Below are positions 8,843-57,451 of a stretch of 64,000 bases of DNA, one piece after another; within the stretch, counting starts at the first letter, position 1, and the number at the start of each line of letters is the position of its first letter. The stretch lies in assembly GCA_036835125.1 (NCBI GenBank), contig DAITMO010000001.1, positions 421,487 through 485,486 on the forward strand, read 5' to 3'. The position numbers and the translations under genes were made by a program. This stretch comes from Patescibacteria group bacterium (GTDB taxonomy: Bacteria > Patescibacteriota > Microgenomatia > UBA8517). The notes beneath the pieces were generated by a model. That model saw nothing but the letters and a program-made list of their open reading frames with translations, did no database searches and was not told where the DNA came from.

Positions 8843-10111
8843 ATGTCGAAATTTATAGTTGAAGGCGGAAACCGCCTTGAAGGCAAAGTTAAACTTTCCG
8901 GAAATAAAAACTCGGCTTTAAAGCTTATTCCTGCTGCTCTTCTTGGAGATTCTCCAACCACCCTTACAAATGTACCAAGGATACTAGATGTTGACGTAAT
9001 GCTTGAGCTTATAGGCAAGCTCGGGGTAAAAGTGACAAGGAAGGATCATGAAGTGACGATTGATCCTACAGGACTTTCTTCTTTTGATCCAGATCCTGAT
9101 TTATCTGCCAAGTTTAGAGCCTCAGTTGTTTTAGCAGCTCCACTCTTGGTCAAATTTGGGAAAGCAATAGTTACCCCTCCAGGTGGGGATCAAATTGGAG
9201 AAAGACTTTTAGACACCCACTTTGCGATGATGCAAAAACTTGGAGTTGAGATAAAAAGAGTAGATGGACGCTTCTATCTAAAGTGGAAGAAAAAAGTTGG
9301 TGGAAACATATTTTTAGATGAGCCTTCAGTTACTGCAACAGAGATGGGGCTTATGATGGCTTCTGCAATGAATGAGAATATAGTAATTGATGATGCTGCA
9401 ACTGAGCCTCATGTAAATAACCTTGCTGAAATGCTTTCCAAAATGGGAGCAAATATTAATGGTATCGGATCAAATGTTTTGAATATTAAGGGCGGAAACC
9501 TCCACGGAGTTGATCACAAAGTATGCCCGGATCATATTGAGGGAGGGACTTTTGCAATTGCGGCAGCCATTACTGGAGGAAAAATTGAGATAGAAGACTT
9601 TGAATCTGAAAAGTATCCAATGATACTTAATTATTTAGGTTATATGGGTGTTAAATACAAAGCTACTCCCAATACTCTTACAGTTTTACCTTCAAATTTG
9701 GAAGCTACACGAGGAAAGTTTCAGACTCGTCCTTGGCCAGGTTTCCCAACGGATTTGATGAGTCCCTTTATAGTTCTCGCAACTCAAACAAAAGGAACCG
9801 TGGTCTGCCATGACTGGATGTATGAATGGAGAATGTTCTTTGTTGATGATTTGATTTCAATGGGCGCAAAAATATTTATTGCTGATCCACACCGAGTGAT
9901 AGTTAGTGGAGCAACACCCCTGATGAGCGACAGATTATTTTGTAAAGATATTAGAGCAGGAATTTCTGTTATTTTGGCAGCTCTAACCGCAGAGGGTAGA
10001 AGTGAAATAGAAAATGTAGAGGTAGTTGCCAGAGGATACGAAAATATTGACGAAAGATTCCGCCGCCTTGGAGCTAAGATTATAGCCAAGGAAGAAAATG
10101 CAGCAAAATAA
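8843..10111 (+). CDS. murA: UDP-N-acetylglucosamine 1-carboxyvinyltransferase
   Basis: MSKFIVEGGNRLEGKVKLSGNKNSALKLIPAALL is the canonical MurA/EPT N-terminus; 422 aa. Confidence 0.9.
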   Translation: MSKFIVEGGNRLEGKVKLSGNKNSALKLIPAALLGDSPTTLTNVPRILDVDVMLELIGKLGVKVTRKDHEVTIDPTGLSSFDPDPDLSAKFRASVVLAAPLLVKFGKAIVTPPGGDQIGERLLDTHFAMMQKLGVEIKRVDGRFYLKWKKKVGGNIFLDEPSVTATEMGLMMASAMNENIVIDDAATEPHVNNLAEMLSKMGANINGIGSNVLNIKGGNLHGVDHKVCPDHIEGGTFAIAAAITGGKIEIEDFESEKYPMILNYLGYMGVKYKATPNTLTVLPSNLEATRGKFQTRPWPGFPTDLMSPFIVLATQTKGTVVCHDWMYEWRMFFVDDLISMGAKIFIADPHRVIVSGATPLMSDRLFCKDIRAGISVILAALTAEGRSEIENVEVVARGYENIDERFRRLGAKIIAKEENAAK

Positions 10112-11114
10112 ATATAGCTACAAACAGAAGATTGTTACATTTGGCGGGAAAACAGGCCATTTTCAGCTTCTAAATGGATTAAAAAAATTAAATGATTCTT
10201 CTCTCATCACTGCAGTTGTTGGAACATGGGACAGTGGTGGAAGTTCTGGAATATTGAGAAGTGAACTTGGAGTTCTTCCTCCAGGGGATATCAGAGCTTG
10301 TATTCTTGCATTGATGGAGGATGATGAACAACAAAAAGTAGCCCAAAGACTATTTGATGACAGATTAAAAGAAGTTGTAGGACCTCTTAAAGGTCATTCA
10401 CTTGGTAATTTGATCGGTGTAAGGCTGGATCATATTTATCATGGACAGGATAGAGGTACAGAAGCCGAAAAGAAGCTATTTAGAGTTCGTGGAGAGGTTC
10501 TTCCAGCAACCCTAACAGACTTGAACCTTGTTGGGTGTACAAAACATGGTATTGAGATTGATGGGGAAGCCAATATTGATAACAGAAAAGAAAGAGCTGA
10601 TTTTGACCCTAGGGATAGAATTGTGAGGATTAGGTTTACTAGTAGAGCAGATAGCAATCCTAAAGTACTTTCTGCAATTAAAAAGGCTGATAAAATTGTG
10701 TTTGCACCAGGGGACCTTTTTACAAGTGTTTTACCTCATCTTTTAGTTGAGGGAGTGGCTGAGGGGATTCTTAAGTCAAAGGCTAAAGTATATTTTGTGC
10801 TTAATTTAATTCAAAAAGAGGGAGAAACGGACTATTTTAAGGCTTCCGACTTCTTAAGAGCACTAAATTTCTATTTAGGAAGTTCAAGGAGATTAAACTT
10901 TATCGTGGTTAATAATAAAAAATTTGACAAAGATATTGTGAAAGTATTTCAAGGAGAAAGGAAAAGGGCCGTAAATTTAGATGAAGATAATTGTCAAAAA
11001 ATTTGTCCAAACGCAAAGATAATAAAAGCAAATTTAGGGGAATATCTCAAAAAAGAGCATCTGTTACGACACAATCCAGAAAAATTAGCTCTTTCAATTT
11101 TGAGAAACAATTAA
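10098..11114 (+). CDS. YvcK/CofD-like (UPF0052) gluconeogenesis-factor family protein
   Basis: VVGTWDSGGSSGILRSELGVLPPGDIRAC matches the YvcK/CofD P-loop-like signature; overlaps the murA end by 14 nt. Confidence 0.7.
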   Translation: MQQNKYSYKQKIVTFGGKTGHFQLLNGLKKLNDSSLITAVVGTWDSGGSSGILRSELGVLPPGDIRACILALMEDDEQQKVAQRLFDDRLKEVVGPLKGHSLGNLIGVRLDHIYHGQDRGTEAEKKLFRVRGEVLPATLTDLNLVGCTKHGIEIDGEANIDNRKERADFDPRDRIVRIRFTSRADSNPKVLSAIKKADKIVFAPGDLFTSVLPHLLVEGVAEGILKSKAKVYFVLNLIQKEGETDYFKASDFLRALNFYLGSSRRLNFIVVNNKKFDKDIVKVFQGERKRAVNLDEDNCQKICPNAKIIKANLGEYLKKEHLLRHNPEKLALSILRNN

Positions 11115-11153
11115 ATTTGAGCTGGGCACAATTGTTGATATAATATACCTCAG

Positions 11154-13163
11154 ATGATTAAAAACATTGATGAAGTTATTAAAAATATCTCTAACTTTCG
11201 TGGGATAACTGATAACTCAAAAGAGGTAAAAAATGGATTTATTTTTGTAGCTATAAAAGGATTAAAAACAAATGGCCATGATTACATTCCAGATGCCATT
11301 AAAAGAGAGGCTAAGTTAGTAATTGGCGAAAAAGATTTAGATTTTGAGAATTATATAAAAGTTGCTGACGGCCGTGAAGCTTTGGGAACTCTTGCCTCGG
11401 CTTTTTATGGTGATCCTTCACAAAAATTGAAAATTATTGGTGTAACAGGCACAAAAGGTAAAACCACAACATGTCATATAATTGAACATATTCTGAATTC
11501 ACTTGGTAAAAAAGTAGGAGTTTTATCTTCAATTTCTGTACCTGGACTTCATGTTACAACTCCAAATCCAATATTTCTTCAAAAAAAATTAGCAGAATTT
11601 GTAAAAGAAGGAAAAGAATTTGCAGTGATTGAGGTTAGCTCACATGGAATAGCTCAAAAAAGAATTGCCGGTATCAAATTTGATGTTGGGGTACTAACGA
11701 ATATTGCGCGAGAGCATTTGGATTATCACAAGACTTTTTCTGAATATAAAAAAGTTAAAATGTCTTTTATTAACTCCTGTAAAGAAAAAATTATTTCTCC
11801 TAAAACGCCGTCAATAAATATTTTACCTGGTGAATATAATAACTCGAATGCAGAGGCGGCAGTTGATGCTGTTGTTAGATTTGGATTGAATAAAAGCGAA
11901 GCACTTAAATCTCTTGAAACATTTAAGCTTCCAGAAGGCCGTTTGATGGAAATTAAAAACGATTTGGGAATAAATATAGTAATTGATTTTGCGCACACTC
12001 CAGGATCTCTTGAAGCAGTTTTAAAACACTTGAAAAAAGAAACAAAAGGAAACTTGATCTCGGTATTTGGTTGTGCGGGAGAAAGAGATCCAGGAAAAAG
12101 GTTTTTAATGGGAAAGATTTCTGTAAAACTTGCAGATTTGTCTATCTTTACATCAGAAGATCCAAGAACAGAAAATTTGTTTGAAATTATTGCCAAGATA
12201 GCCAAAGGTGCCAAGAGTATTGGAGGGATTGAGGATAAAGATTTTGTGAGAATTTATGAGAGAGGTGAAGCTATAGTTTATGCATTGACTTATGCAAAAA
12301 AAGGAGACACTATTGCAATACTGGGCAAGGGACATGAGAAAAGTATGTCATTTGATGGTTGGGAACACCCATGGAGTGACAAAGAAGTGGTCGAAAATTT
12401 TCTAAATAGAGACAAAAATTTGTCAGCTATTATTTTAGCGGCAGGAAAAGGATCAAGGATGCATTCTTCTTTACCCAAAGTTATTCACAAAATTTGTGGC
12501 AGGCCAATGATCTCATATACTTTAGAAAATTTGAGATTTGCTGGAGTTGGAGATATTACTGCAGTCATTTCGTTTAAAAGAAACGTTGTTTCAAAGTATA
12601 TTAAAGGAGCCATAAAGTTGGCTATTCAAAAAAATCCAAAAGGCGGAACAGCTGACGCTGCAAAAACTGGTTTTGAGAAAGTAGACAAAAACTCCAAAGT
12701 ACTAATTGTTATAAATGGTGACGATAGCGCATTCTACAAATCGGAAACAATTAAAAAAATTATTGATATTCACATGGAAAGAGATAGAAAGCTTACCTTT
12801 GTATCGTTAATAAAAGAAAACCCAACAGGTTTGGGACGAGTCATCAGGGGAGAAAATGGTCTAATTACAAAAATTGTTGAGGAAAAAGATGCAACTTTCG
12901 AAGAAAAGAAAATTAAAGAAGTAAACGATGGTCTTTATGTTTTTGATAGAGATTGGTTTTCAAAAAATATCAATAAAGTTAAAAGAAGTGCATCAGGCGA
13001 GCTTTATTTAGTTGATTTAGTAAAAATGGCAATTGATGAGGGGGTCAAAATGGCTACATATACTCTTCCGAACGATAATGAATGGCAAGGAATAAACACC
13101 CCTGAAGAGTTAGAGAAAGCTAGAAAGAAAATGGAAACAAGACTTAAAGATTTAAATGAATAA
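11154..13163 (+). CDS. murE: bifunctional Mur ligase (MurE-like) fused to a sugar-1-phosphate nucleotidyltransferase (GlmU N-domain-like)
   Basis: Residues 1-~420: IIGVTGTKGKTTTCHI, Mur ligase central and C-terminal domains. Residues ~425-669: LSAIILAAGKGSRMHSSLPKVIHKICGRPMI (NTP_transferase G-x-G-x-R motif), no LbH acetyltransferase repeats. Confidence 0.8.
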   Translation: MIKNIDEVIKNISNFRGITDNSKEVKNGFIFVAIKGLKTNGHDYIPDAIKREAKLVIGEKDLDFENYIKVADGREALGTLASAFYGDPSQKLKIIGVTGTKGKTTTCHIIEHILNSLGKKVGVLSSISVPGLHVTTPNPIFLQKKLAEFVKEGKEFAVIEVSSHGIAQKRIAGIKFDVGVLTNIAREHLDYHKTFSEYKKVKMSFINSCKEKIISPKTPSINILPGEYNNSNAEAAVDAVVRFGLNKSEALKSLETFKLPEGRLMEIKNDLGINIVIDFAHTPGSLEAVLKHLKKETKGNLISVFGCAGERDPGKRFLMGKISVKLADLSIFTSEDPRTENLFEIIAKIAKGAKSIGGIEDKDFVRIYERGEAIVYALTYAKKGDTIAILGKGHEKSMSFDGWEHPWSDKEVVENFLNRDKNLSAIILAAGKGSRMHSSLPKVIHKICGRPMISYTLENLRFAGVGDITAVISFKRNVVSKYIKGAIKLAIQKNPKGGTADAAKTGFEKVDKNSKVLIVINGDDSAFYKSETIKKIIDIHMERDRKLTFVSLIKENPTGLGRVIRGENGLITKIVEEKDATFEEKKIKEVNDGLYVFDRDWFSKNINKVKRSASGELYLVDLVKMAIDEGVKMATYTLPNDNEWQGINTPEELEKARKKMETRLKDLNE

Positions 13164-14364
13164 CATAAAAAAAATTCACATGATGGGGATTGGAGGAAGT
13201 GGAATGAGTGGCGTTGCCTATTTAGCTGAAAAAATGGGCTATATTGTGACAGGTTGTGATCTTGAAGAATCAACTGCTTATACAAAAAACATTTTTAAAG
13301 GACATTCTCCCGATCATTTGAAAGATATTGATTTATTGGTGGTTTCTCCGGCTGTTTTCTATCAGAATTCTGATAATCCCGAACTTCTTGAAGGTAAAAA
13401 AAGGGGAATGGTGATAACCTGGCAAGAATTTGTTGGCAGGTATATGACTGATGGCAAAAAACTAATTTGTGTTGCAGGAACTCACGGGAAGTCTACAACA
13501 ACAGCAATGGTAGGAAAGCTTCTTATTGATGTGGGGCTTAATCCGACAGTTTTGGTTGGAGCCAAAGTTCCTGAGTGGAATGGAAATGCAAGGTATGGCA
13601 CAGGAGAATATTTTGTATTAGAAGCAGATGAGTTTAATAACAATTTTCTTTTTTATCACCCCGACATAATTGTTTTAAATAATATTGAATTTGATCATCC
13701 GGACTTCTTTAAAGATGAGGAAGAAGTAAGGAGTTCCTTTGATAAATTTATCGGAAACCTAAAAGGAGAAAAGATTTTAATTACTTTAAATGACAGTTTG
13801 GACAAACACTTCAATCTCAAAGTAATGGGAGAATATAATCAGAAAAATGCAAATATGGTTTTTGCTTTGGGAAAGAAATTGGGAATTAGTGACGAGGAAA
13901 TTACTAAATCATTAGAATCATTTGAAGGAATAGGGAGAAGGATGGAGCTTATTGCTGACAGAAATGGAGTGAAAGTCTATGATGATTATGCACATCACCC
14001 CACAGCAATAAAGTTAACTCTCGAAGGAGTAAGAGAAAGATTTTCTGATGCTAAAATTTTAGTAATAGATGAACCACATGGATATAAAAGAACAAAAGCA
14101 CTTTTATCCGAATATGGGGGTGTTTTTGGTTCAGTTAATAAAGTAATTATTGGCCCCATATTTCAAGCTCGTGATGAAGTTGATAGTTCGATTACTCCTG
14201 AGGGTGTAGTGAAAGCATTAAAGCATAAAAATGCTATTGGACTAAATAGTTTTAAAGAAATAATTGAAGAGGTCAATAACGAGAGTAGAAAATATGACAT
14301 TATTGTAGTAATGGGAGCAGGCAAAAGCTATCTCTGGGCAAAGGAAATTGCAAAAATTATTTAA
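13156..14364 (+). CDS. murC: UDP-N-acetylmuramate--L-alanine ligase
   Basis: IHMMGIGGSGMSGVAYL N-terminus plus GTHGKSTTTAM P-loop. Confidence 0.85.
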   Translation: MNNIKKIHMMGIGGSGMSGVAYLAEKMGYIVTGCDLEESTAYTKNIFKGHSPDHLKDIDLLVVSPAVFYQNSDNPELLEGKKRGMVITWQEFVGRYMTDGKKLICVAGTHGKSTTTAMVGKLLIDVGLNPTVLVGAKVPEWNGNARYGTGEYFVLEADEFNNNFLFYHPDIIVLNNIEFDHPDFFKDEEEVRSSFDKFIGNLKGEKILITLNDSLDKHFNLKVMGEYNQKNANMVFALGKKLGISDEEITKSLESFEGIGRRMELIADRNGVKVYDDYAHHPTAIKLTLEGVRERFSDAKILVIDEPHGYKRTKALLSEYGGVFGSVNKVIIGPIFQARDEVDSSITPEGVVKALKHKNAIGLNSFKEIIEEVNNESRKYDIIVVMGAGKSYLWAKEIAKII

Positions 14365-14379
14365 CTAGTTTTTTGATTT

Positions 14380-15390
14380 ATGACAATGATAAAAATTGAA
14401 GAAAATAAATATTTTAAAGATCTTACAACTTTTAGAGTTGGTGGAAAAATTAAATATTTTGTGGAAGTAAAAGATGTTGAGGAAACAAAGGAGGCTTTGG
14501 TTTTTGCTAAAAAAAATAATTTAATAATTTTCATTCTTGGTGAAGGAAGTGATCTTTTGGTAAGTGATAATGGTTTTAATGGAATTGTTATAAAATTTGT
14601 CGGAGATTCATATAAAATTGATGGCAATATTGTTACAGCTCAAGCAGGTCTTTCTTGGGACAAACTAGTAGACATAACTGTAGAAAATGACCTTCAGGGT
14701 TTAGAATGCCTTTCGGGAATTCCAGGTACAGTTGGTGCGTCCCCCATTCAAAACATTGGTGCATATGGAGCTGAAATGTCTAATACTTTTGAAAAACTTG
14801 AAGCATTAAATTTGGAAAAAGGAAAAATAGAAGAGTTTGATAAGGAAAGATGTGAATTTGGATACAGAGAAAGTATTTTCAAAACTAAAGAATATTGGCA
14901 AAAGTATTTAATATTAAGTGTTTCATTTAAATTGAATAAAGGTGGCAAACCAACAGTTAACTACGATTCTTTAAAAGGATTGGTGAATAAAAGCTCTACA
15001 ATTTCTGAAATACGCGAAGCGGTAATAAAAACAAGGAATGAAAGACTTGAGAATCCAAAGGAACATGGCAATGCGGGTTCCTTTTTCCAGAATCCAATAA
15101 TTGATAAAAATAAGAAACAAGAATTGGAAGACTTATATCCGGATATAAAAATATTTCCATTTGGAGAAAACTTTAAGGTGTTTGCTGGCTGGTTAATCGA
15201 AAAGGCTGGATGGAAAGGACGTGTTCATAAAGAAGCAGGTGTTTCTCCTAAACATGCATTGATTCTAATTAATAGAACGAATAAAGCTACAGCCATGGAT
15301 ATTTATGAACTATCCCAAAAAATTATAGACGACGTTTCAAACAAATTTGGTGTAGAGATGAAAAGAGAGGTACAGTTAATTAATTTTTGA
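14380..15390 (+). CDS. murB: UDP-N-acetylenolpyruvoylglucosamine reductase
   Basis: FAD-binding PCMH domain (TFRVGGKIKYFVEV ...) and MurB C-terminal domain; 336 aa. Confidence 0.85.
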   Translation: MTMIKIEENKYFKDLTTFRVGGKIKYFVEVKDVEETKEALVFAKKNNLIIFILGEGSDLLVSDNGFNGIVIKFVGDSYKIDGNIVTAQAGLSWDKLVDITVENDLQGLECLSGIPGTVGASPIQNIGAYGAEMSNTFEKLEALNLEKGKIEEFDKERCEFGYRESIFKTKEYWQKYLILSVSFKLNKGGKPTVNYDSLKGLVNKSSTISEIREAVIKTRNERLENPKEHGNAGSFFQNPIIDKNKKQELEDLYPDIKIFPFGENFKVFAGWLIEKAGWKGRVHKEAGVSPKHALILINRTNKATAMDIYELSQKIIDDVSNKFGVEMKREVQLINF

Positions 15391-15393
15391 AAA

Positions 15394-16689
15394 ATGGAAA
15401 AATATAAATTTAAAAAGATTGCTGTGATAGGTTTGGGAATTGAAGGGAAAGATGCTGTAAATTACTTTCTAAGTTGTGGAGGAATAATAACTTTGTTTGA
15501 TAAAAAGAAAGAAAACGAAATAGATTTCACTGGAATTGATAAAAATAAAATTGAGTTAGTTTCTGGAGAAGATTATTTAAAGAATGGTTTTAAAGGTTTT
15601 GATTATATTGTTAGGTCCCCTGGGGTGTATCCATATATTAAAGAGTTGTTTAATGCAAAAAGAGATGGGACAGTTATTACTTCAGTTGTAAAAGTATTCT
15701 TTGACGAATGTCCTGGAAAAATCATTGGGGTAACTGGAACAAAAGGAAAAGGAACAACGTCAACCCTGATTTATGAAATATTAAAAAAAGAAGGGAGTGA
15801 TGTTTATCTTGTTGGAAACATTGGTAAACCTTCGCTTGAGATATTGCCAAAACTTAACAAAGACTCATGGGTTGTAATGGAACTTTCATCATTTCAACTT
15901 ATGGATATGGAAGTAAGTCCTCATATTGCAGTAGTTCTCAATATCACAGAAGACCATATGGATTGGCATAAAGACAGAGAAGAATATATAAAGGCAAAAA
16001 TGAATATAGTTAAATTCCAAAAAGAAGAAGATTTTGCAATTATTAGTGACGATTATGATTTACCAAGATCGTTTTATAAATATACAAAAGCTAAAGTTAA
16101 ATATTTTTCTAAACACAATCTCAGATTTTTAAGTGGTGAAAAATTAAAACTTCGTGGAGAACATAATTTAGAAAATATTTGTGCTTCCATGCATGTGGCA
16201 GAAGTGATTGGTGTTCCCAAAAAGATAATAAAAGAAACTGTTATTAATTTTAAGGGTTTGGAACATAGACTTGAATTAGTTACTGAAATTGACGGAGTTG
16301 CCTATTACAACGATTCATTTGCTACAGGTCCACAACCAACAATTGCGGCAATTAACTCATTTACTGAAGATGAAACGTTAATTTTGGGGGGAAGTGATAA
16401 GGGTTTATCTTTTGAAGAATTAAGAAAAGTAATAGAAGAAAAAAATAATGTTAAAAATCTAATTTTAATAGGAGATATTGGAGAAAAAATTGGCGGTGGA
16501 ATAAAAGGTAAAAACACAATTAATTTAGGGCATACTTCAATAAACAAAATCGTTGAAAAGGCAAATGAAATTACAAAAAAAGGTGGGGTTGTCATTTTTT
16601 CTCCAGCTGCAGCAAGTTTTGATATGTTCAAAAATTACAAAGATAGGGGTAATCAATTTAAAGAAGCGGTTTTAGGATTAAAGAGTTAA
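15394..16689 (+). CDS. murD: UDP-N-acetylmuramoylalanine--D-glutamate ligase
   Basis: KIAVIGLGIEGKDAV Rossmann N-terminus, VTGTKGKGTTSTLI P-loop; 431 aa. Confidence 0.85.
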   Translation: MEKYKFKKIAVIGLGIEGKDAVNYFLSCGGIITLFDKKKENEIDFTGIDKNKIELVSGEDYLKNGFKGFDYIVRSPGVYPYIKELFNAKRDGTVITSVVKVFFDECPGKIIGVTGTKGKGTTSTLIYEILKKEGSDVYLVGNIGKPSLEILPKLNKDSWVVMELSSFQLMDMEVSPHIAVVLNITEDHMDWHKDREEYIKAKMNIVKFQKEEDFAIISDDYDLPRSFYKYTKAKVKYFSKHNLRFLSGEKLKLRGEHNLENICASMHVAEVIGVPKKIIKETVINFKGLEHRLELVTEIDGVAYYNDSFATGPQPTIAAINSFTEDETLILGGSDKGLSFEELRKVIEEKNNVKNLILIGDIGEKIGGGIKGKNTINLGHTSINKIVEKANEITKKGGVVIFSPAAASFDMFKNYKDRGNQFKEAVLGLKS

Positions 16690-16709: not shown

Positions 16710-17750
16710 ATGATTTCAGTACAGCCAATATTAAGCTTTAAATATTTTCAGTTAAGGAAAAATAGTTTACCAAAAGGAATTAGGAGCCTGTTCTATCTTT
16801 CTTGGGAAGATGCTTTATGGGATCTTTTATATAAAAAAAATATTAAAAAAGGATCATATATTTTAGTCCCTGACTTTTACTGTAATGATGTAGAAAAAAA
16901 CATTAAGCAACATGGGTATAAAATTGGTCATTACAAAATTAATAAAAACCTTTCTGTTGACAAAAAATCTTTTCAATCAAAAATATCTCAACTGAAACCT
17001 GGTGTAATTGTTGTTTTTCACCCAGTTGGAATTAAAAGTAATTTATTTGAGAATATCACATGGCTTAAAAATGTTACAAAAGAAGCTATTCTAATTGAAG
17101 ACTCGGTTCACAGAGTTATTGATCGAAAAGAAATAAAAATAATTAAAAAAAACCATTTTGCAATTGATAGTTTAAGAAAAGTTGTTCCTCTTCAAGGAGC
17201 AAGGATGTATGGCAAAATTGAAGATTTAAATTTTGATGAACCTACTATCTTTCAATCATTTTTTTATAGAGTTAAGGTGAGTATTTATTGGTTTTTAATG
17301 ATTATTTGTTGGACGTTAGGTTTTGGAATATTGGCAGAAAAACTAATGATTAAAGGTTATGAAATAATAGGGGATTCAAAAAAACCTTCTCGTGGAAGTT
17401 TTCTTTCAAAACTATTTAGTAACCATATTAATATTAGAAGAATTCAAAAAGACAAAGTAAAACAGTTTGGAATCTACATGAATAAAATAACAAACAGATC
17501 TTTAGGTCAATTGAAAATAAAAGAAGAGGACAAAAAACATCTAAGAGGATTTCCAATTATTTTATCAATCAAAAATGCTGATATGATTCTTGGATATTTA
17601 AGGTGTCACGGACTTTTGGTTTGTTATGAACTAGATGGTTCTTTTTGGAGCACTAAACAAAAAATCATATATTTACCGTTTGGACCTCAAATTGACAAAA
17701 AGTCTAATGAAGATATTTGTAATTTGGTTAACAAAGCATTTGAGATATAA
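16710..17750 (+). CDS. DegT/DnrJ/EryC1-like PLP-dependent enzyme fold protein (function unknown), with a C-terminal hydrophobic segment
   Basis: ILVPDFYCNDVEKNIKQHGYKIGHYKIN, AILIEDSVHRV and SLRKVVPLQGARMYG resemble fold-type I sugar aminotransferases (putative Schiff-base Lys in SLRK). Assignment by eye only. Confidence 0.35.
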   Translation: MISVQPILSFKYFQLRKNSLPKGIRSLFYLSWEDALWDLLYKKNIKKGSYILVPDFYCNDVEKNIKQHGYKIGHYKINKNLSVDKKSFQSKISQLKPGVIVVFHPVGIKSNLFENITWLKNVTKEAILIEDSVHRVIDRKEIKIIKKNHFAIDSLRKVVPLQGARMYGKIEDLNFDEPTIFQSFFYRVKVSIYWFLMIICWTLGFGILAEKLMIKGYEIIGDSKKPSRGSFLSKLFSNHINIRRIQKDKVKQFGIYMNKITNRSLGQLKIKEEDKKHLRGFPIILSIKNADMILGYLRCHGLLVCYELDGSFWSTKQKIIYLPFGPQIDKKSNEDICNLVNKAFEI

Positions 17751-52501: not shown

Positions 52502-52782
52502 GAGGTCGTAGCTCAATTGGTTAGAGCGCTTCCCTGTATAAAGTGGCAGCTCTTAAGAGTAATCTTGAGATGATAATCAGGCTAATTCGGGAAATGCCTT
52601 TGAAAGAAGGAGAATCCCGAGCTAAATCTACGCTCAATTAAAAAATGAACGTAGTAAATGTGTAGAGACTATATACCTGATATCCTACCTGGTTCACCCA
52701 GGGGATAATGAGATAGTCCACCTTTTCAGAAATGAAAAGTTTTGCACGGAAGAGGTTGCGAGTTCGAGTCTCGTCGACCCCG
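52502..52782 (+). tRNA. tRNA-Asp (anticodon GUC) interrupted by a group I intron between nt 35 and 36
   Basis: 5' exon 52502-52537: acceptor gaggtcg, D-arm gctc-aattggtta-gagc, anticodon stem cttcc, then loop nt ctgt. 3' exon 52745-52782: cac-ggaag (stem partner)-aggtt-gcgag-ttcgagt-ctcgt-cgacccc-G. Spliced loop is CUGUCAC (as in E. coli tRNA-Asp), discriminator G; one A-C mismatch at 2:71. Confidence 0.8.
52538..52744 (+). ncRNA. group I self-splicing intron (207 nt) in the tRNA-Asp anticodon loop
   Basis: Internal guide GUGGCAG (52543-52549) pairs with 3' exon CAC (P10) and 5' exon CUGU (P1, U.G at the 5' splice site); terminal omega-G at 52744. Conserved P (aattcgggaaa), Q (aatcccgagc), R (gtgtagagactata) and S (gagatagtcc) elements, with gacta/tagtc forming P7. 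Confidence 0.8.
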
Positions 52783-54267
52783 CCCAGAGTGACGGTACTC
52801 AGGTTTTAGGAGTACATCATAGGGCATTTTGAAGCTAAAAACAGGGTTTTTGTTATCCAAATAGAAGTTCTCACCGATATCCATAAGTAATTTTCTCTTC
52901 TCTAAAATTTTATCGCTTTCCATAACACTTCGTGCGTAAAAAGCGTTATCTAGAAATTCTTCAGCTAGTTCCAACCAATTTTCTTCTGAATTTTTGACAT
53001 CCCTAATTAATCCCTCGATTCTAGCCTGTTCACTTAAAGATATATTCTTTTGGATCATAAATTCATCTCTAGTAAGTTCATTATTTGCACGCATTTCAAT
53101 TAATCTACTTATTTTGGTCTGAATCATTCTTTCTTCCTTATTCAGGTGTTCAATTTGTTCATTGTTTCTATTCGATTGATCCTTATTTTTAGCTTTTAAA
53201 AGTTTCACTCCAAGCTCCCAAACATCTTTATCAATCGATATCTTGGAGATTTTATATAACAATCTACCTTCAAAATTTTCCAATCTAACTGGTGATTGAT
53301 CACAATTTCCTTTACGTTTTGTGCAGTGTAAATAAACATATCTGACTGTTCGGTTGGTTTCTTTGTAATATTTAGTTTTGAATGTTGTGGTTATGGCGGA
53401 ATTACATGATGGACATTTTAAAAGGCCATTATAGCTCATTTTATTCCAAATATTCACTTGCGGCTTTGATCGGTCTTTTAACTTTTCTTGTGCGGTATCA
53501 AACAGCGTCTTAGTGATTAGTGGATCATAATTCCCTTTGTAAAGTTGCCCTTTATATTTGAAATAACCATAATAGGATGGATTTGTAAGCATTCGGTGAA
53601 TTTGTTCTTTACAAAGTTTTTCACCATTCCTAGCAGTTAAACCTTGTGAATATAAAAAATTCGCAATGTTTGTAAGCGAATACTGACCAGTAGCTTCCAT
53701 TTCAAAAATTTTTTTAATCAACGGAGCTTCAAATCCGTCTGGAATTAGATTCTTTTTACCTTTCTCGCCGACCATTTTATAACCAAAGAACGAATAACCA
53801 GGATATTCTCCTCGTTCAACCTTGTGCTTTAAACCTCTCAAAACATTTTGGCTCAATACTCGAGAATATTGATTAGCCATTCCAAAATGAATTTGAAGTA
53901 TTAGGTGGTCTGAGTCTGGATTATAAATTTCTCCCGTGGGTGTTCTTATTTCTTTTAAAACACCATCTTGCAATAACTGAAGTATTTCACCCCCTTCTTT
54001 TGGATTTCTACTTAACCTATCTGGTTTCCAGGTAAGTATTGCATCAGCCTTATTAGATTTAATAAGTTCTAACATTTCATTAAACACGACACGTTTATTT
54101 GGTTTGTAGGCAGATTTACTTTCTTGTAAACGGTAAACAATGGGCAAAGATTCTTTCAATGCATATTCTTCACATTCTAAATTCTGGTCGTTTATTGAAG
54201 CCACTTGTTTCTCTTTTGCTTCAGAGGACTTCCTGGAATATCTAATATATCTTAATTTGTTATTCAT
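52726..54267 (-). CDS. large serine recombinase (integrase)
   Basis: N-terminal resolvase catalytic domain (RYIRYSRKSSEAKEKQVASINDQ ... ILTWKPDRLSRN), recombinase domain and Cys4 zinc ribbon (CPSCNS ... LHCTKRKGNC); 513 aa. The last ~19 codons are the antisense of the tRNA-Asp 3' exon. Confidence 0.85.
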   Translation of the reverse strand: MNNKLRYIRYSRKSSEAKEKQVASINDQNLECEEYALKESLPIVYRLQESKSAYKPNKRVVFNEMLELIKSNKADAILTWKPDRLSRNPKEGGEILQLLQDGVLKEIRTPTGEIYNPDSDHLILQIHFGMANQYSRVLSQNVLRGLKHKVERGEYPGYSFFGYKMVGEKGKKNLIPDGFEAPLIKKIFEMEATGQYSLTNIANFLYSQGLTARNGEKLCKEQIHRMLTNPSYYGYFKYKGQLYKGNYDPLITKTLFDTAQEKLKDRSKPQVNIWNKMSYNGLLKCPSCNSAITTTFKTKYYKETNRTVRYVYLHCTKRKGNCDQSPVRLENFEGRLLYKISKISIDKDVWELGVKLLKAKNKDQSNRNNEQIEHLNKEERMIQTKISRLIEMRANNELTRDEFMIQKNISLSEQARIEGLIRDVKNSEENWLELAEEFLDNAFYARSVMESDKILEKRKLLMDIGENFYLDNKNPVFSFKMPYDVLLKPEYRHSGRGRRDSNSQPLPCKTFHF

Positions 54268-54308
54268 AATTAAAAACCTTATTCTAATCTTAAAAGAAAT
54301 GTAAAAGA

Positions 54309-54749
54309 CTAGGATATTTTGATCTCATCATCTTTCTTATCTGATAAATTGAACATTATTTTTGACAACTCGTCTTCTGATTTTAAATAGTATATTGCCA
54401 CATTTGGCAATGACTTTTTTGTTAGGATATTTGCTGTATTTACCTTGAACATGTCCAAGTTTTTTATATACGAGACTCCATTATTTTCCTCCAACAACCC
54501 CTTTTTTATTAATAATTTTCTCAACCTATGAACTTTACTATAACTACAACCCCAAAGTTCTGAGAACTCCTCATCACTTTTAAGTATAGCTCTATAATAC
54601 TTATGTTTTCTATCCCAGTCTGCTTGCATTGAAAACAAAATGTATGCACTTAATTCTATTAAATTCACGACCCCTCTACTGAGTAGATATTGTATACATC
54701 TCAATATTACAATATAACCAGAGTATTTTGTAGAGTATTCAATATTCAT
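54309..54749 (-). CDS. hypothetical protein with putative winged-helix DNA-binding segment
   Basis: 146 aa; WGCSYSKVHRLRKLLIKKGLLEE resembles an HTH recognition helix; no family assigned. Confidence 0.3.
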   Translation of the reverse strand: MNIEYSTKYSGYIVILRCIQYLLSRGVVNLIELSAYILFSMQADWDRKHKYYRAILKSDEEFSELWGCSYSKVHRLRKLLIKKGLLEENNGVSYIKNLDMFKVNTANILTKKSLPNVAIYYLKSEDELSKIMFNLSDKKDDEIKIS

Positions 54750-54766
54750 ATTAAATTTGTATATCT

Positions 54767-55000
54767 TTACCTAAAAATTATTGTTTTTAATCTTCCAATT
54801 GATTCATAGTATGTTCTGGCGTTAACTAACAATTCTCCAAAAAAGTATTTTTTTGATATGCTTTCGCAAAGACCTATATTTTCAAAAACAAAAAAACAAA
54901 TGTTTTTGATACGTTCTATTTTTGAGATTTGTATGCCATAAGTAATCAAGGCGGCTGCTTCTGCCAAATCTCGTGTTTTGTATTCTTCAGAATTTCTCAT
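54767..55000 (-). CDS. hypothetical small protein
   Basis: 77-aa ORF immediately upstream of 54309..54749 on the same strand. Confidence 0.3.
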   Translation of the reverse strand: MRNSEEYKTRDLAEAAALITYGIQISKIERIKNICFFVFENIGLCESISKKYFFGELLVNARTYYESIGRLKTIIFR

Positions 55001-55185
55001 ATTGCATTTTCTTTATAAATCTAAAAGCATTTTCTATATATGAGGTAAGATTTACGGCTATTTGTTTAATTTCCAAATCAGACAGTTGCCTTTTATATCG
55101 AGGTTCAAAAACTTTTTTTATGTTTAATTTTAGTGTGTTATCAAGCCATGTAATTTCCATATCCATTGATTAAAGATTTGCCAAC

Positions 55186-55211
55186 AAAAAACCAGGCCAA
55201 GCAAGCCTGGT
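55186..55211 (-). terminator. rho-independent terminator (minus strand)
   Basis: Stem accaggc/gcctggt with loop caagcaa, followed on the minus strand by TTTTTT (plus strand: aaaaaaccaggccaagcaagcctggt). Confidence 0.45.
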
Positions 55212-55607
55212 ATTACAATCCTTAATTAGCCTAATGGCTAAAACCTAAACAGGTTATGGATATGGCTTTCGACAATACTATTGTCTGTAGCTTCCAAAAA
55301 TAATTTTAGTTAGGTGTTTACTAATTTGTCAACACGACGCAATGTAATAAATGTGGAACCTAAAAACTGTAACGAGGGTACTGGTAGTTCAATCTTAAGG
55401 ATTATTCATTTTGTTAAAAGTCATTGCATACACAGAGTGGAGGGGATACTACTTGCTAGTGCTTGTTAATATTTGTCAAGTTCTTGCATAGTCATTTATT
55501 TAAATATGTTATGCTCTTATTGTTATTGCTGGTTGGAAGGCAATAACTGGCAGAATCCTGTGCCTAATCCATCGCAAAAAGGGTATAGTTCCCATACACA
55601 TAAAGCC

Positions 55608-56225
55608 CTAGTTACTTTGTGGTCTTACTGCACAGGAAGTTTGATACCATATGGGGGTAAATTTTCCTTTATTGTAAGTGTATCTAGTGACTCTATATTC
55701 ACCATTGTTCCAATCAATAGTCTCATGTAGAAAGAAACCATTACTATCTCCGGCTTTTGATATATTCACACTGGCTCCCTGGTATTTAAAAACTATGAAT
55801 CCATCCTTAACAATCACTACATCATTTGGAGTGTGATTCATTGCAGTATTTGCTGTTAAAATTCTTTCATCTATTTGATCACTATCAACATCAAACTTGG
55901 TTTCTGTCCAAGGATTGATACTTTCAGGGGTTGTATAAAATTCACCTCCAAATGGTTCTTTTGTCGAATCAAATTTTTCTTTAAGAGAAATGATTTTTTT
56001 ATTTGAAGTAACCAGAGAAGGAGGATATGAAGCAATTACTTCATATAGCACATCCGAAAGATATTCTTTAGGAAATTCTTTTCCTACATAATGTGGACAT
56101 ATAATTTGAGTAAAGTTTGGTTGTCTAAGATTTTTTGACCTATCAAATATTGTGTTACTAACTAATAAATAAGTTCCAATTATCGAGACTAATGATACTG
56201 CGATGTGGGAGAGTAACTTTCTCAT
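55608..56225 (-). CDS. hypothetical secreted protein
   Basis: 205 aa with N-terminal signal/TM (MRKLLSHIAVSLVSIIGTYLLVSN); overlaps the upstream ORF by 4 nt. Confidence 0.4.
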   Translation of the reverse strand: MRKLLSHIAVSLVSIIGTYLLVSNTIFDRSKNLRQPNFTQIICPHYVGKEFPKEYLSDVLYEVIASYPPSLVTSNKKIISLKEKFDSTKEPFGGEFYTTPESINPWTETKFDVDSDQIDERILTANTAMNHTPNDVVIVKDGFIVFKYQGASVNISKAGDSNGFFLHETIDWNNGEYRVTRYTYNKGKFTPIWYQTSCAVRPQSN

Positions 56226-56437
56226 TTACAAGGTTTATAAACATTAAACCTTTCACATCCAATTCCAGTAAAGTTATTTATCTCTGTTTCCCAGCCACCT
56301 TTAGTGTATGAGAACCTGTTCAACCAAAGCAACAGAATTTGGAGCAAGACAATAATGATTAGAATCACTCTCGCGAAGTATTTTTGATCAACTATTTTTT
56401 TTATTATTTGTAAAAACTTATTCAAAGATTTTTTCAT
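56222..56437 (-). CDS. hypothetical small membrane protein
   Basis: 71 aa with one TM; translationally coupled between the S26 peptidase gene and the secreted-protein gene. Confidence 0.35.
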   Translation of the reverse strand: MKKSLNKFLQIIKKIVDQKYFARVILIIIVLLQILLLWLNRFSYTKGGWETEINNFTGIGCERFNVYKPCK

Positions 56438-57141
56438 TTTGAAAATAATTTAAACATAAATTTGCCAATAATATTTTGTTTTTTGACGACTTGGATATCG
56501 CCACCTCTTTTGTCAAAAAGTACAAGATATTCATCATCTTTCAGTGAAACATTTTGTACCCTATTTTCAGCCCACTGAATCCAATCTGCATATGGTTCAC
56601 TAAGACTATTACCATTAACTACAAGCTCACCTGGGGCAATCTGGAGTGTTTCATTTGGCAAACCCACTATTCTACCCATCCTCTCACTATTGCTAGATAT
56701 GTAGTCAATAACATCGCCTCTCTTCGGAGGGTTTATCTTATAAATAAATTTATTTACCAAGTATGTATCATCATGCACATACAATGGTTCCATTGAGAAT
56801 CCATCAACAATGGCATAGCGAAAGAGACTGGCCCATAAAATCACAATAACAATAAGGCTTGCTACAAGAATTCCGACAATCCTTATTATTTTCCAGATTA
56901 GTTTTTTAGAATGAAGCCAGATTATCATCCAAATAGGAAAACTAAATATACAGGTGAGTAAAGAAATAATTAATGGTAAAGATATCCATAAAGGAGCCGT
57001 ATTAGAAATAAAACCTATTCTAAAAACATCCAGGATAAGAAAAATTACAAATACTATAAACGAATACAGAGAGATTTTCTTTAACAAATTATTTTCATAT
57101 AATTTGTTCTTATTTAGTCCAGGCACGGATTTTTTATCCAT
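56434..57141 (-). CDS. S26 family signal peptidase (SipW/TraF-like) with extended N-terminal multi-TM region
   Basis: IVDGFSMEPLYVHDDTYLVNKF ... PKRGDVIDY ... GLPNETLQIAPGELVVNGN (S26 Ser/Lys dyad context), preceded by ~100 aa with 3 TM helices. Confidence 0.65.
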   Translation of the reverse strand: MDKKSVPGLNKNKLYENNLLKKISLYSFIVFVIFLILDVFRIGFISNTAPLWISLPLIISLLTCIFSFPIWMIIWLHSKKLIWKIIRIVGILVASLIVIVILWASLFRYAIVDGFSMEPLYVHDDTYLVNKFIYKINPPKRGDVIDYISSNSERMGRIVGLPNETLQIAPGELVVNGNSLSEPYADWIQWAENRVQNVSLKDDEYLVLFDKRGGDIQVVKKQNIIGKFMFKLFSK

Positions 57142-57238
57142 ATGAAAGTAATAATTAATCAGATTTTACGCCCTTATTGTAAATAATTGCAAGATATATC
57201 TGGTAAATATATAGCTGGTAATTTATTAACCTTTAGAA

Positions 57239-57451
57239 ATGAATTACCAAACAATATACAGAAAGCTAGGTGAAAGAATTGAATGGTTCAGAAAAGAGAA
57301 AGGAATGACACAAGAGGAGTTGGCAGAAAAAGCTGGTTTACATAGGGCATATTTTTGGGATATAGAAAGGGGTAGAAATATCTCAGTAAGAACAGCGTAT
57401 TTGATATCCAGGGCGTTAGAGATTAAACTATCCACACTTTTCGATTTTTAG
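57239..57451 (+). CDS. XRE-family helix-turn-helix transcriptional regulator
   Basis: 70 aa; MTQEELAEKAGLHRAYFWDIERG is a canonical Cro/C1-type HTH; divergent from the S26 operon. Confidence 0.8.
   Translation: MNYQTIYRKLGERIEWFRKEKGMTQEELAEKAGLHRAYFWDIERGRNISVRTAYLISRALEIKLSTLFDF

Follow-up and report, generated by a model that had tools for sequence, protein, structure and literature searches.

A MurE-type Mur ligase fused to the uridyltransferase half of GlmU in the cell-wall gene cluster of a Patescibacteria group bacterium

A stretch of 64,000 nucleotides from a Patescibacteria group bacterium (Microgenomatia; UBA8517) was analyzed, comprising positions 421,487 to 485,486 of the forward strand of contig DAITMO010000001.1 (assembly GCA_036835125.1); this stretch is called the window, and its coordinates are counted from its first letter. 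An open reading frame (ORF) of 669 aa on the plus strand of the window (11154..13163, ATG start, stop codon included) was confirmed to encode a MurE-type ligase, a linker of about six residues and a GlmU uridyltransferase domain without the left-handed β-helix (LbH) domain. A preliminary description made from the sequence alone had proposed a single in-frame ORF of this kind, and the ORF list, Pfam and NCBIfam bore this out. We consider it probable that the protein is a bifunctional enzyme of the Candidate Phyla Radiation (CPR)/Patescibacteria (Microgenomates, Woesebacteria-like), which combines a streamlined MurE with the uridyltransferase half of GlmU and arose by read-through fusion of neighboring genes, with no specific channel between the two. 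As judged from sequence, both halves look catalytically competent. The MurE half (aa 1-417) would add the third residue to UDP-MurNAc-L-Ala-D-Glu, and the C-terminal 246 aa would convert UTP and N-acetylglucosamine-1-phosphate (GlcNAc-1-P) to UDP-GlcNAc, which would feed MurA, encoded two genes upstream, and MurG. The latter half is very likely how this reduced genome supplies the uridyltransferase step, as had been supposed in the preliminary description.

The ORF gave four Pfam matches, all above gathering scores: Mur_ligase (N-terminal domain, PF01225) at aa 16-85, Mur_ligase_M (PF08245) at aa 97-249, Mur_ligase_C (PF02875) at aa 263-393 and NTP_transferase at aa 425-661. The MurE module with its N-terminal, central ATP-binding and C-terminal Mur ligase domains occupies 11154..12404, and the GlmU N-terminal domain (GlmU-N; GlcNAc-1-P uridylyltransferase or pyrophosphorylase; aa 424-669) occupies 12423..13160. 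The linker between them (aa 418-423; 12405..12422) leads from the last helix of MurE to the first strand of GlmU-N; alignments with MurE sequences of the PDB stop at aa 417 and those with GlmU begin at aa 424-425. The GC content of the two halves is equal (0.334 vs 0.332). An AlphaFold2 model built from a 41-sequence alignment reached a mean pLDDT of 90.3 and a pTM of 0.87 and contained no low-confidence or disordered linker; helix 409-417, the last of MurE, is followed after two residues by strand 420-429, the first of GlmU-N. The C-terminal helix of the model (aa 650-668; 13101..13157) corresponds to the helical arm of GlmU, which normally leads into the LbH domain and in Escherichia coli comprises Leu230-Ala250 (PMC10087520), and the chain ends there. 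Foldseek matches included no PDB chain covering both parts.

Genes of this cluster overlap or lie a few bases apart, and one sequencing or assembly error, that is a missed stop codon or frameshift, could merge two neighbors. Such an artefact is effectively refuted here. The DNA of the junction (12400-12430), at which the preliminary description had advised a check for a missed frameshift or stop, reads through with no stop and no change of frame, and the identical 669-aa protein was called on six contigs from independent assemblies, among them a 642,871-bp contig of NCBI GCA_964443015.1 and two from independent ENA assemblies. Furthermore, a search of a 5.8-billion-protein collection (NCBI, JGI, ENA and Logan sources), of which the best 120 clusters were taken, revealed both domain sets in all of at least 120 clusters with 58-93% identity and lengths of 630-714 aa. 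These diverged clusters share frame and linker length; in a MAFFT alignment the segment spanning the junction was equally long in 117 of 121 sequences. After clustering at 50% identity, MurE plus GlmU-N accounted for 11 of the 150 closest representatives (8 full-length); the family is therefore sizeable yet phylogenetically confined. One of its members, P0076 on CP066686.1, is labelled 'Candidatus Woesebacteria'. Public database names of these proteins are partial ('MurE' or 'NTP transferase domain-containing protein'), and such single-function names hide one of the two functions.

The MurE half scored 423 bits with the NCBIfam murE model TIGR01085 (cutoff 257). Its best solved sequence relative was T. 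maritima MurE (4bub; E = 1.6e-79), and Foldseek superposed the N-terminal part of the protein on the MurE structures 1e8c and 4bub with TM-scores of 0.72-0.74, normalised to the target. The P-loop GTKGKTTT was located at aa 99-106 (11448..11471) exactly as first quoted; within it G99, T100, G102, K103, T104 and T105 are invariant among the 121 aligned sequences, K101 is found in 119 and T106 in 120. Also invariant or nearly so are E160, H188 (in the motif EHLDYH), K202, R311 and GKGHE at aa 391-395. By alignment to the residues of the E. coli enzyme (1e8c), E160 and H188 would be the catalytic Glu and His, and K202 would occupy the position of the carbamylated Lys.

The preliminary description had called this Mur ligase complete. 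This holds for the three-domain architecture, which Pfam and Foldseek both revealed, and for the P-loop; it does not hold for the central domain, from which about 47-55 residues are absent as compared to solved MurE structures (4bub, 2wtz). The deletion site was located by split PDB alignments at aa 212-226 (11787..11831): aa 212 to 226 align to residues 229 to 290 of 4bub and to residues 268 to 339 of Mycobacterium tuberculosis MurE (2wtz), so that about 61-71 residues are replaced. In agreement, the Pfam Mur_ligase_M match on the MurE half spans only positions 1-151 of 200. Three long fusions found in related loci (L014, L015 and L021; 751-775 aa) retain the segment. The MurC encoded next in the window (402 aa, 13156-14364) is streamlined as well, with a Mur_ligase_M match restricted to positions 1-125 of 200; together, the shortened MurE and MurC represent a natural minimal Mur ligase core.

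A comparison of the residues that select between diaminopimelate (DAP) and Lys, which had been proposed at the outset, gave a divided result. The DNPR motif of meso-DAP-adding MurE enzymes is not present; in its place the protein has EDPR (aa 335-338; 12156..12167), aligned with 'DDNPRDED' of M. tuberculosis and 'TDDPRGED' of T. maritima, in which E335, D336 and R338 are invariant and P337 occurs in 113 of 121 sequences. Conserved as well are the counterparts of R389, G464 and E468. T. maritima MurE, which adds L- and D-lysine, likewise carries an acidic residue for the Asn of DNPR, with DDPR there and EDPR here. It differs from the protein described here in a central domain that is about 47 residues longer. 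The protein described here passes the DAP-ligase equivalog model NF001126 (406 bits, cutoff 373) and fails the NCBIfam Lys-ligase model (230 bits, cutoff 536). With the EDPR motif on one side and these two scores on the other, the specificity for the third residue is ambiguous; a diamino acid that bears a distal carboxylate is the probable substrate.

The last 250 aa match positions 2-241 of GlmU models that are 447-452 positions long, that is the pyrophosphorylase half only (NF010934: 205 bits over positions 2-241 of 447). Whole-protein GlmU scores of 189-205 bits remained below the curated cutoffs of 367-450 (for TIGR01173, 189-193 bits with a cutoff of 366.85), as expected for half of a protein. 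In a search of PDB sequences, S. pneumoniae GlmU (1g95/1hm0) was matched with an E-value of 2.5e-37, and Foldseek placed the C-terminal part on S. pneumoniae 1g97, a complex with UDP-GlcNAc and Mg2+, at 1.6 Å over 247 columns. Bacterial GlmU proteins (E. coli 1hv9/2oi6, S. pneumoniae 1g97) are 31-33% identical to this half, superpose at 1.6-2.0 Å and share with it the signature motif, the Mg2+ ligands, the residues binding sugar and uridine, and the helical arm. The signature L-x2-G-x-G-T/S-x-M-x4-P-K is present as LAAGKGSRMHSSLPK; it includes LAAGKGSRM (aa 428-436; 12435..12461), again found as originally quoted, and LPK at aa 440-442. Invariant among the 121 sequences are G431, R435, M436, P441, K442, Q492, G497-G498-T499 and G522-D523, and also G559, G561, R562, E576, N591, G615-E616 and N648. 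According to the alignment with the S. pneumoniae enzyme and to the E. coli numbering, these positions would comprise the catalytic Arg and Lys, the binders of uracil and GlcNAc, and the two Mg2+ ligands. Of the catalytic residues checked in this half, none is missing.

The bifunctional bacterial GlmU carries in addition an LbH domain for acetyl transfer and trimerisation, and it is not joined to MurE. The absence of the hexapeptide acetyltransferase domain from the fusion, noted from the beginning, was verified: no Hexapep match was obtained on the ORF, the GlmU profiles are covered by half only, and all 121 sequences have just 18-25 residues beyond N648, the last Mg2+ ligand. The isolated GlmU N-domain is described in PMC10087520, in a passage citing Pompeo 2001, as catalytically autonomous and independent of trimer formation; the same passage ascribes to contacts between the domains a role in its folding and stability.

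The loss of the acetyltransferase half, together with the fact that the usual supply of GlcNAc-1-P is not evident, raises the question whether the domain uses another substrate. It might act on MurNAc-1-P in a salvage pathway of the MurU type, on another hexose-1-P for surface glycans, or on GlcN-1-P, in which case UDP-GlcN would be formed first and acetylated afterwards by an enzyme of the GNAT family. Some positions of the sugar pocket deviate, with N-D-G vs N-T-G in GlmU of E. coli and S. pneumoniae, and with N521 where E. coli GlmU has a Tyr. A GNAT gene is a conserved neighbor in some relatives, and GNAT enzymes acting on UDP-amino sugars exist (PseH, found at rank 47 among structural neighbors of this GNAT). 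GlmU itself can uridylylate before acetylation, although poorly (PMC10087520). On the other side, GlmU profiles scored about five times higher than the MurU model NF045761 (205 vs 40.4 bits, the latter far from its cutoff of 250) and well above RmlA (52-59 bits) and AglF (67 bits). The positions aligning with GlcNAc contacts (T499, G561, E576 and N591) are invariant, the closest structure is a GlmU with UDP-GlcNAc bound, and the complete de novo route through MurA and MurB encoded in the cluster needs UDP-GlcNAc. A substrate other than GlcNAc-1-P thus appears unlikely.

It is also conceivable that GlmU-N has lost its enzymatic function and now senses UDP-GlcNAc or UTP in order to tune MurE. 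The domain has lost its partner and is permanently tethered to another enzyme, and a UDP-GlcNAc-binding regulator of the YvcK/GlmR family is encoded at the same locus, directly upstream of the fusion gene (10098..11114, +; TIGR01826, 229.6 bits with a cutoff of 196). We regard a purely regulatory domain as very improbable: catalytic and Mg2+-binding residues are all invariant in 121 sequences down to 58% identity, which is unexpected for a pure binder, and the same module occurs elsewhere free-standing or fused to MurC.

This variation of the fusion partner became apparent when related loci (L numbers) were compared; their ORFs were called by us and assigned by BLAST to reference proteins, and key genes were confirmed by Pfam and NCBIfam. 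In the division/cell-wall (dcw) cluster of Microgenomates-type CPR bacteria, the LbH-less GlmU-N keeps a constant position behind murE, and three states of it were found. It is fused to the C-terminus of MurE in the window and in L001/L002, L008-L016, L021 and L091-L093. In L023-L026, L032 and L050, MurE is separate and GlmU-N is fused to the N-terminus of MurC; in these proteins of 666-669 aa, NCBIfam finds glmU positions 2-241 together with murC. In L029, L039, L046 and L047 it is a free protein of 247-255 aa. The junction which is fused in the GlmU-N::MurC lineages corresponds to the one between the fusion gene and murC in the window, where the murC start (13156..14364, +; ORF list, Pfam, spacing) overlaps the end of the fusion ORF by 8 nt.

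A different enzyme can take the same place. Directly after a short, unfused murE, the loci L003, L097 and L098 carry an archaeal-type bifunctional protein consisting of an NTP-transferase and an LbH domain (TIGR03992, ST0452-like; 233-269 bits), and in L029 this enzyme occurs together with a free GlmU-N. The archaeal-type enzyme of L003, L029, L097 and L098 shares the post-murE slot with GlmU-N and presumably acts in the same pathway; it belongs to a distinct lineage of NTP-transferases with no BLAST match to GlmU-N at 1e-5, and, unlike GlmU-N here, it keeps the LbH domain and is unfused to MurE. Among the best 120 of 809 matches to the archaeal-type enzyme, none lay on a contig equal in length to one of the long contigs that carry the fusion, and there are hints, although only suggestive ones, that the fusion and this enzyme are mutually exclusive.

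Neighbor-joining trees were constructed for both domains. In the tree of GlmU-N domains, the LbH-less forms stood apart from canonical GlmU, free forms were basal, and MurE fusions and MurC fusions each formed one group. In the tree of MurE domains, the fusions with long MurE were basal, and the unfused MurEs located beside the archaeal-type enzyme nested inside the group of fused short MurEs.

The preliminary description had suggested that the fusion physically couples formation of UDP-GlcNAc to assembly of the stem peptide, which could take place by channelling or by a dependence of MurE on local production of the UDP-sugar. This could not be upheld and seems improbable to us. The linker of about six residues has a fixed length, the overall arrangement in the AlphaFold2 model is confident, complexes of Mur enzymes have been proposed and the active sites of MurE-MurF chimeras are adjacent (PMC10214165), all of which would suit a coupled enzyme. 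However, UDP-GlcNAc has to pass MurA, MurB, MurC and MurD before MurE acts. The first consumer is encoded by murA (8843..10111, +; Pfam EPSP_synthase, 225 bits), and the remaining steps between GlmU and MurE include those of MurB (14380-15390, +) and MurD (15394-16689, +), both identified by Pfam. Moreover, the same module is free or fused to MurC in sister lineages, unfused MurEs beside a different GlmU-type gene nest within the fused clade, and known chimeras of non-sequential Mur enzymes are not explained by channelling (PMC10214165). The fused protein might still be part of a loose assembly of Mur enzymes; a direct hand-over between the two active sites would not be expected, because MurE acts four steps later.

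For the preferred explanation, a bifunctional enzyme that originated by fusion of neighboring genes, the simplest evolutionary reading of the trees is a tentative one in four steps. First, a glmU residing in the dcw cluster would have lost the part for the LbH domain. Independent read-through fusions would then have joined GlmU-N to a translationally coupled neighbor, either MurE upstream or MurC downstream; the central domain of MurE would have been trimmed later, and in some lineages GlmU-N would have been replaced by a different GlmU-type gene. The fusion may be of benefit by equimolar co-production with Mur enzymes and by stabilizing a domain orphaned of its LbH partner.

Several points weigh against this explanation or parts of it. 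The gap of about 47-55 residues in the central domain and EDPR in place of DNPR make the amino acid substrate of MurE uncertain. A specific rigid interface between the domains, with a function of its own, is conceivable in view of the high pTM and of a linker that is very short and fixed in length. The evolutionary scenario is drawn from neighbor-joining trees of a simple kind, which carry no support values. GlmU-N may not be the sole source of uridyltransferase activity, because the neighboring YvcK/GlmR gene belongs to a family of which the Listeria member GlmR was reported to be an accessory uridyltransferase (PMC10128056); hence, the locus may encode two routes. Finally, a second, complete GlmU may be encoded beyond the 64-kb window, within which neither a hexapeptide protein nor a second NTP-transferase, separate glmU or separate acetyltransferase is present.

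Removal of the LbH domain leaves the acetylation step to be accounted for. Within the 64-kb window no glmS, no glmM and none of the GNAT and HAD genes of the relatives were found; GlcNAc-1-P in this genome could come from an acetyltransferase encoded elsewhere on the contig or from salvage of GlcNAc. In 4 of 11 distinct unbiased fusion loci (L001, L009, L010/L011 and L012), a gene of the GNAT family is located divergently 19-64 bp from the start of the fusion gene. These genes lie on the minus strand at 9496-9981 in L001, 8765-9979 in L009, 9294-9980 in L010 and 1782-2366 in L012; further ones were located at 7001-8173 in L091-L093. The proteins are orthologous, with 42-47% identity over the GNAT core, and a profile search found only 45 clusters of the family, labelled Patescibacteria or Woesebacteria. 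Three members picked regardless of context all adjoined a murE::glmU-N gene, and glmS is adjacent in L001, L091 and L092. Beyond the general GNAT fold, the GNAT beside the fusion gene showed no specific likeness in sequence or structure to GNA1; PseH, as mentioned, was among its structural neighbors. Two ORFs were rejected as candidates: a 154-aa ORF after a GATase gene of L025, considered as a GNAT, was assigned to PNPOx by Pfam, and a 433-aa ORF, considered as GlmM, to class II aminoacyl-tRNA synthetases.

Many of the GNAT proteins carry an N-terminal module of the HAD superfamily with a DFDxT motif. The same module occurs as a gene of about 160 aa right after the archaeal-type enzyme (L097, 9283-9768; L098, 9242-9721), fused to this enzyme (P0417, 643 aa) and fused to MurC (L003, 3791-4255). 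Because the HAD module swaps between GNAT, archaeal-type enzyme and MurC, this Rosetta-stone evidence suggests a place for both GNAT and HAD in the UDP-GlcNAc branch, where the module of about 160 aa is a candidate for a mutase or phosphatase of sugar phosphates. Possibly, the dcw cluster of Microgenomates-type CPR bacteria contains a modular route to UDP-GlcNAc, in which GlmU-N, fused to MurE or MurC, only uridylylates, a lineage-specific GNAT found solely beside this fusion gene acetylates, the HAD protein replaces GlmM as mutase or phosphatase, and genomes such as that of the window, with no GNAT and HAD at the locus, depend on scavenged GlcNAc; we regard this as less probable than not. If the modular route were true, the GNAT would be the 'unidentified acetyltransferase' postulated for bacteria with an N-only GlmU. 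In any case, the GNAT and HAD neighbors provide concrete candidates that could be tested for the missing acetylation and perhaps for the mutase step.

GlmU has long been regarded as a drug target and as the one essential way in which all bacteria make UDP-GlcNAc, and recent work shows exceptions. Truncated GlmU proteins consisting of the N-terminal part only were described in some bacteria, for example Polystyrenella longa, and an unidentified acetyltransferase was postulated for them (Fong et al. 2026 preprint, 10.64898/2026.06.23.733835). Like these, the domain described here is a uridyltransferase domain without the acetyltransferase half; it differs in being embedded in the dcw cluster and fused to a Mur ligase, whereas those of Fong et al. 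(2026) are stand-alone genes of NagU-containing taxa. Their preprint does not mention a fusion, MurE, GNAT or Patescibacteria. Our results add an extensive lineage of uncultivated bacteria that uncouple the two activities of GlmU and join its uridyltransferase half to Mur ligases.

Natural Mur chimeras were surveyed by Shirakawa et al. (2023, PNAS; PMC10214165), who listed MurE-MurF, MurC-MurB, MurC-Ddl, MurG-MurC, MurD-FtsW and MraY-MurG; unidentified species, and hence metagenome-assembled genomes of CPR bacteria, were left out. The fusion resembles these chimeras in that one polypeptide with little or no linker contains two enzymes of peptidoglycan precursor synthesis from neighboring dcw genes, and in that the partners need not catalyze consecutive steps; chimeras of non-sequential enzymes were attributed to stability, stoichiometric expression or complex assembly and not to channelling (PMC10214165). 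Unlike the surveyed chimeras, it has a UDP-GlcNAc-forming nucleotidyltransferase as partner and not a Mur, Ddl, FtsW or MraY protein. GlmU does not occur in the text of the survey, and the fusion matches none of the types described there; furthermore, no description of a MurE-GlmU fusion or of UDP-GlcNAc synthesis in Woesebacteria was found in a literature collection that covered subscription journals thinly. The MurE-GlmU-N fusion is not mechanistically surprising; what is new is the type of partner that the Mur enzyme has acquired, in a lineage unusually rich in fusions of neighboring genes. With it, the known natural Mur chimeras are no longer confined to the Mur/Ddl/FtsW/MraY set.

The chimeras of the CPR loci are indeed far more varied than those of the survey (C-B, B-D, C-B-D, C-D-E, E-C, HAD-C, U-C and E-U, with U for GlmU-N and single letters for Mur enzymes), and all types other than murC::murB are absent from it. 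Apart from the GlmU-N fusions, we found murC::murB, murB::murD, murC::murB::murD (1170 aa), murC::murD::murE (1341 aa) and HAD::murC in these loci, and the 50%-identity representatives also include MurE+MurC, MurE+MurC+MurB (1251 aa), MurE+MurD and MurD+MurE. Examples are located at 12003-15515 in L010/L011, 7274-11299 in L020, 5482-7842 and 3773-5515 in L003 and 13097-15289 in L001; others are P0130, P0135 and P0143. The very high frequency and the variety of dcw fusions in CPR bacteria favor the idea that these enzymes act next to each other.

The fusion gene is part of a complete dcw cluster, all genes of which are located on the plus strand and closely spaced, at distances of -14 to +77 nt. 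The cluster reads rsmH, ftsL-like, ftsI, murA, the YvcK/GlmR-family gene, murE::glmU-N, murC, murB, murD, a 346-aa ORF, alr, murF, mraY, ftsW, murG, ftsQ-like, ftsA and ftsZ. The fusion gene occupies the murE position of the dcw order, in agreement with the preliminary description: murA and YvcK/GlmR lie upstream, murC, murB and murD downstream. Nearly all related loci keep the YvcK/GlmR gene beside either the fusion gene or murA. Upstream of the fusion gene there is a single gap of sizeable length, and it contains a promoter-like site (11117-11144, +; TTGAGC-N16-(TG)TATAAT). Between the end of the -10 box of this site and the ATG there are 9 nt, and no obvious Shine-Dalgarno sequence is present; therefore, the leader of the message could be very short or absent altogether. 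A scan of the cluster for promoters and terminators remained at chance level (68 found vs 69 expected).

The 346-aa ORF (16710-17750, +) between murD and alr gave no Pfam, NCBIfam or PDB-sequence match. It is kept at the same place in L008 and, with 48% identity, in L003 (7853-8926), and it sits where relatives carry murI or ddl; the cluster of the window has neither ddl nor murI. The contig of L003 (CAZSGY010000002.1) bears the title 'uncultured Gammaproteobacteria bacterium'; with the window it shares this rare ORF and 56-75% identity in the cell-wall genes, and the Gammaproteobacteria label of the bin is probably wrong. Another ORF, of 354 aa and likewise with no Pfam, NCBIfam or PDB match, lies between murE::glmU-N and murC::murB in L001, a complete Woesebacteria genome (12036-13100, +). 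The assumption that both ORFs belong to the same family was rejected, since they proved unrelated on comparison.

Some related loci contain further genes of cell-wall metabolism. The peptidoglycan editing factor PgeF is encoded between glmU-N and murC in L029 (13170-13886), a NagB-like gene of the Glucosamine_iso family lies beside glmS in L013 (15921-16670, minus strand), and L098 carries a MurL-type epimerase in place of MurI (12980-14212). Elsewhere in the window, the region 52726-57451 may be an integrated mobile element; behind a large serine recombinase with resolvase and recombinase domains (513 aa, minus strand), it contains small ORFs, a second gene resembling S26 signal peptidases and an HTH gene.

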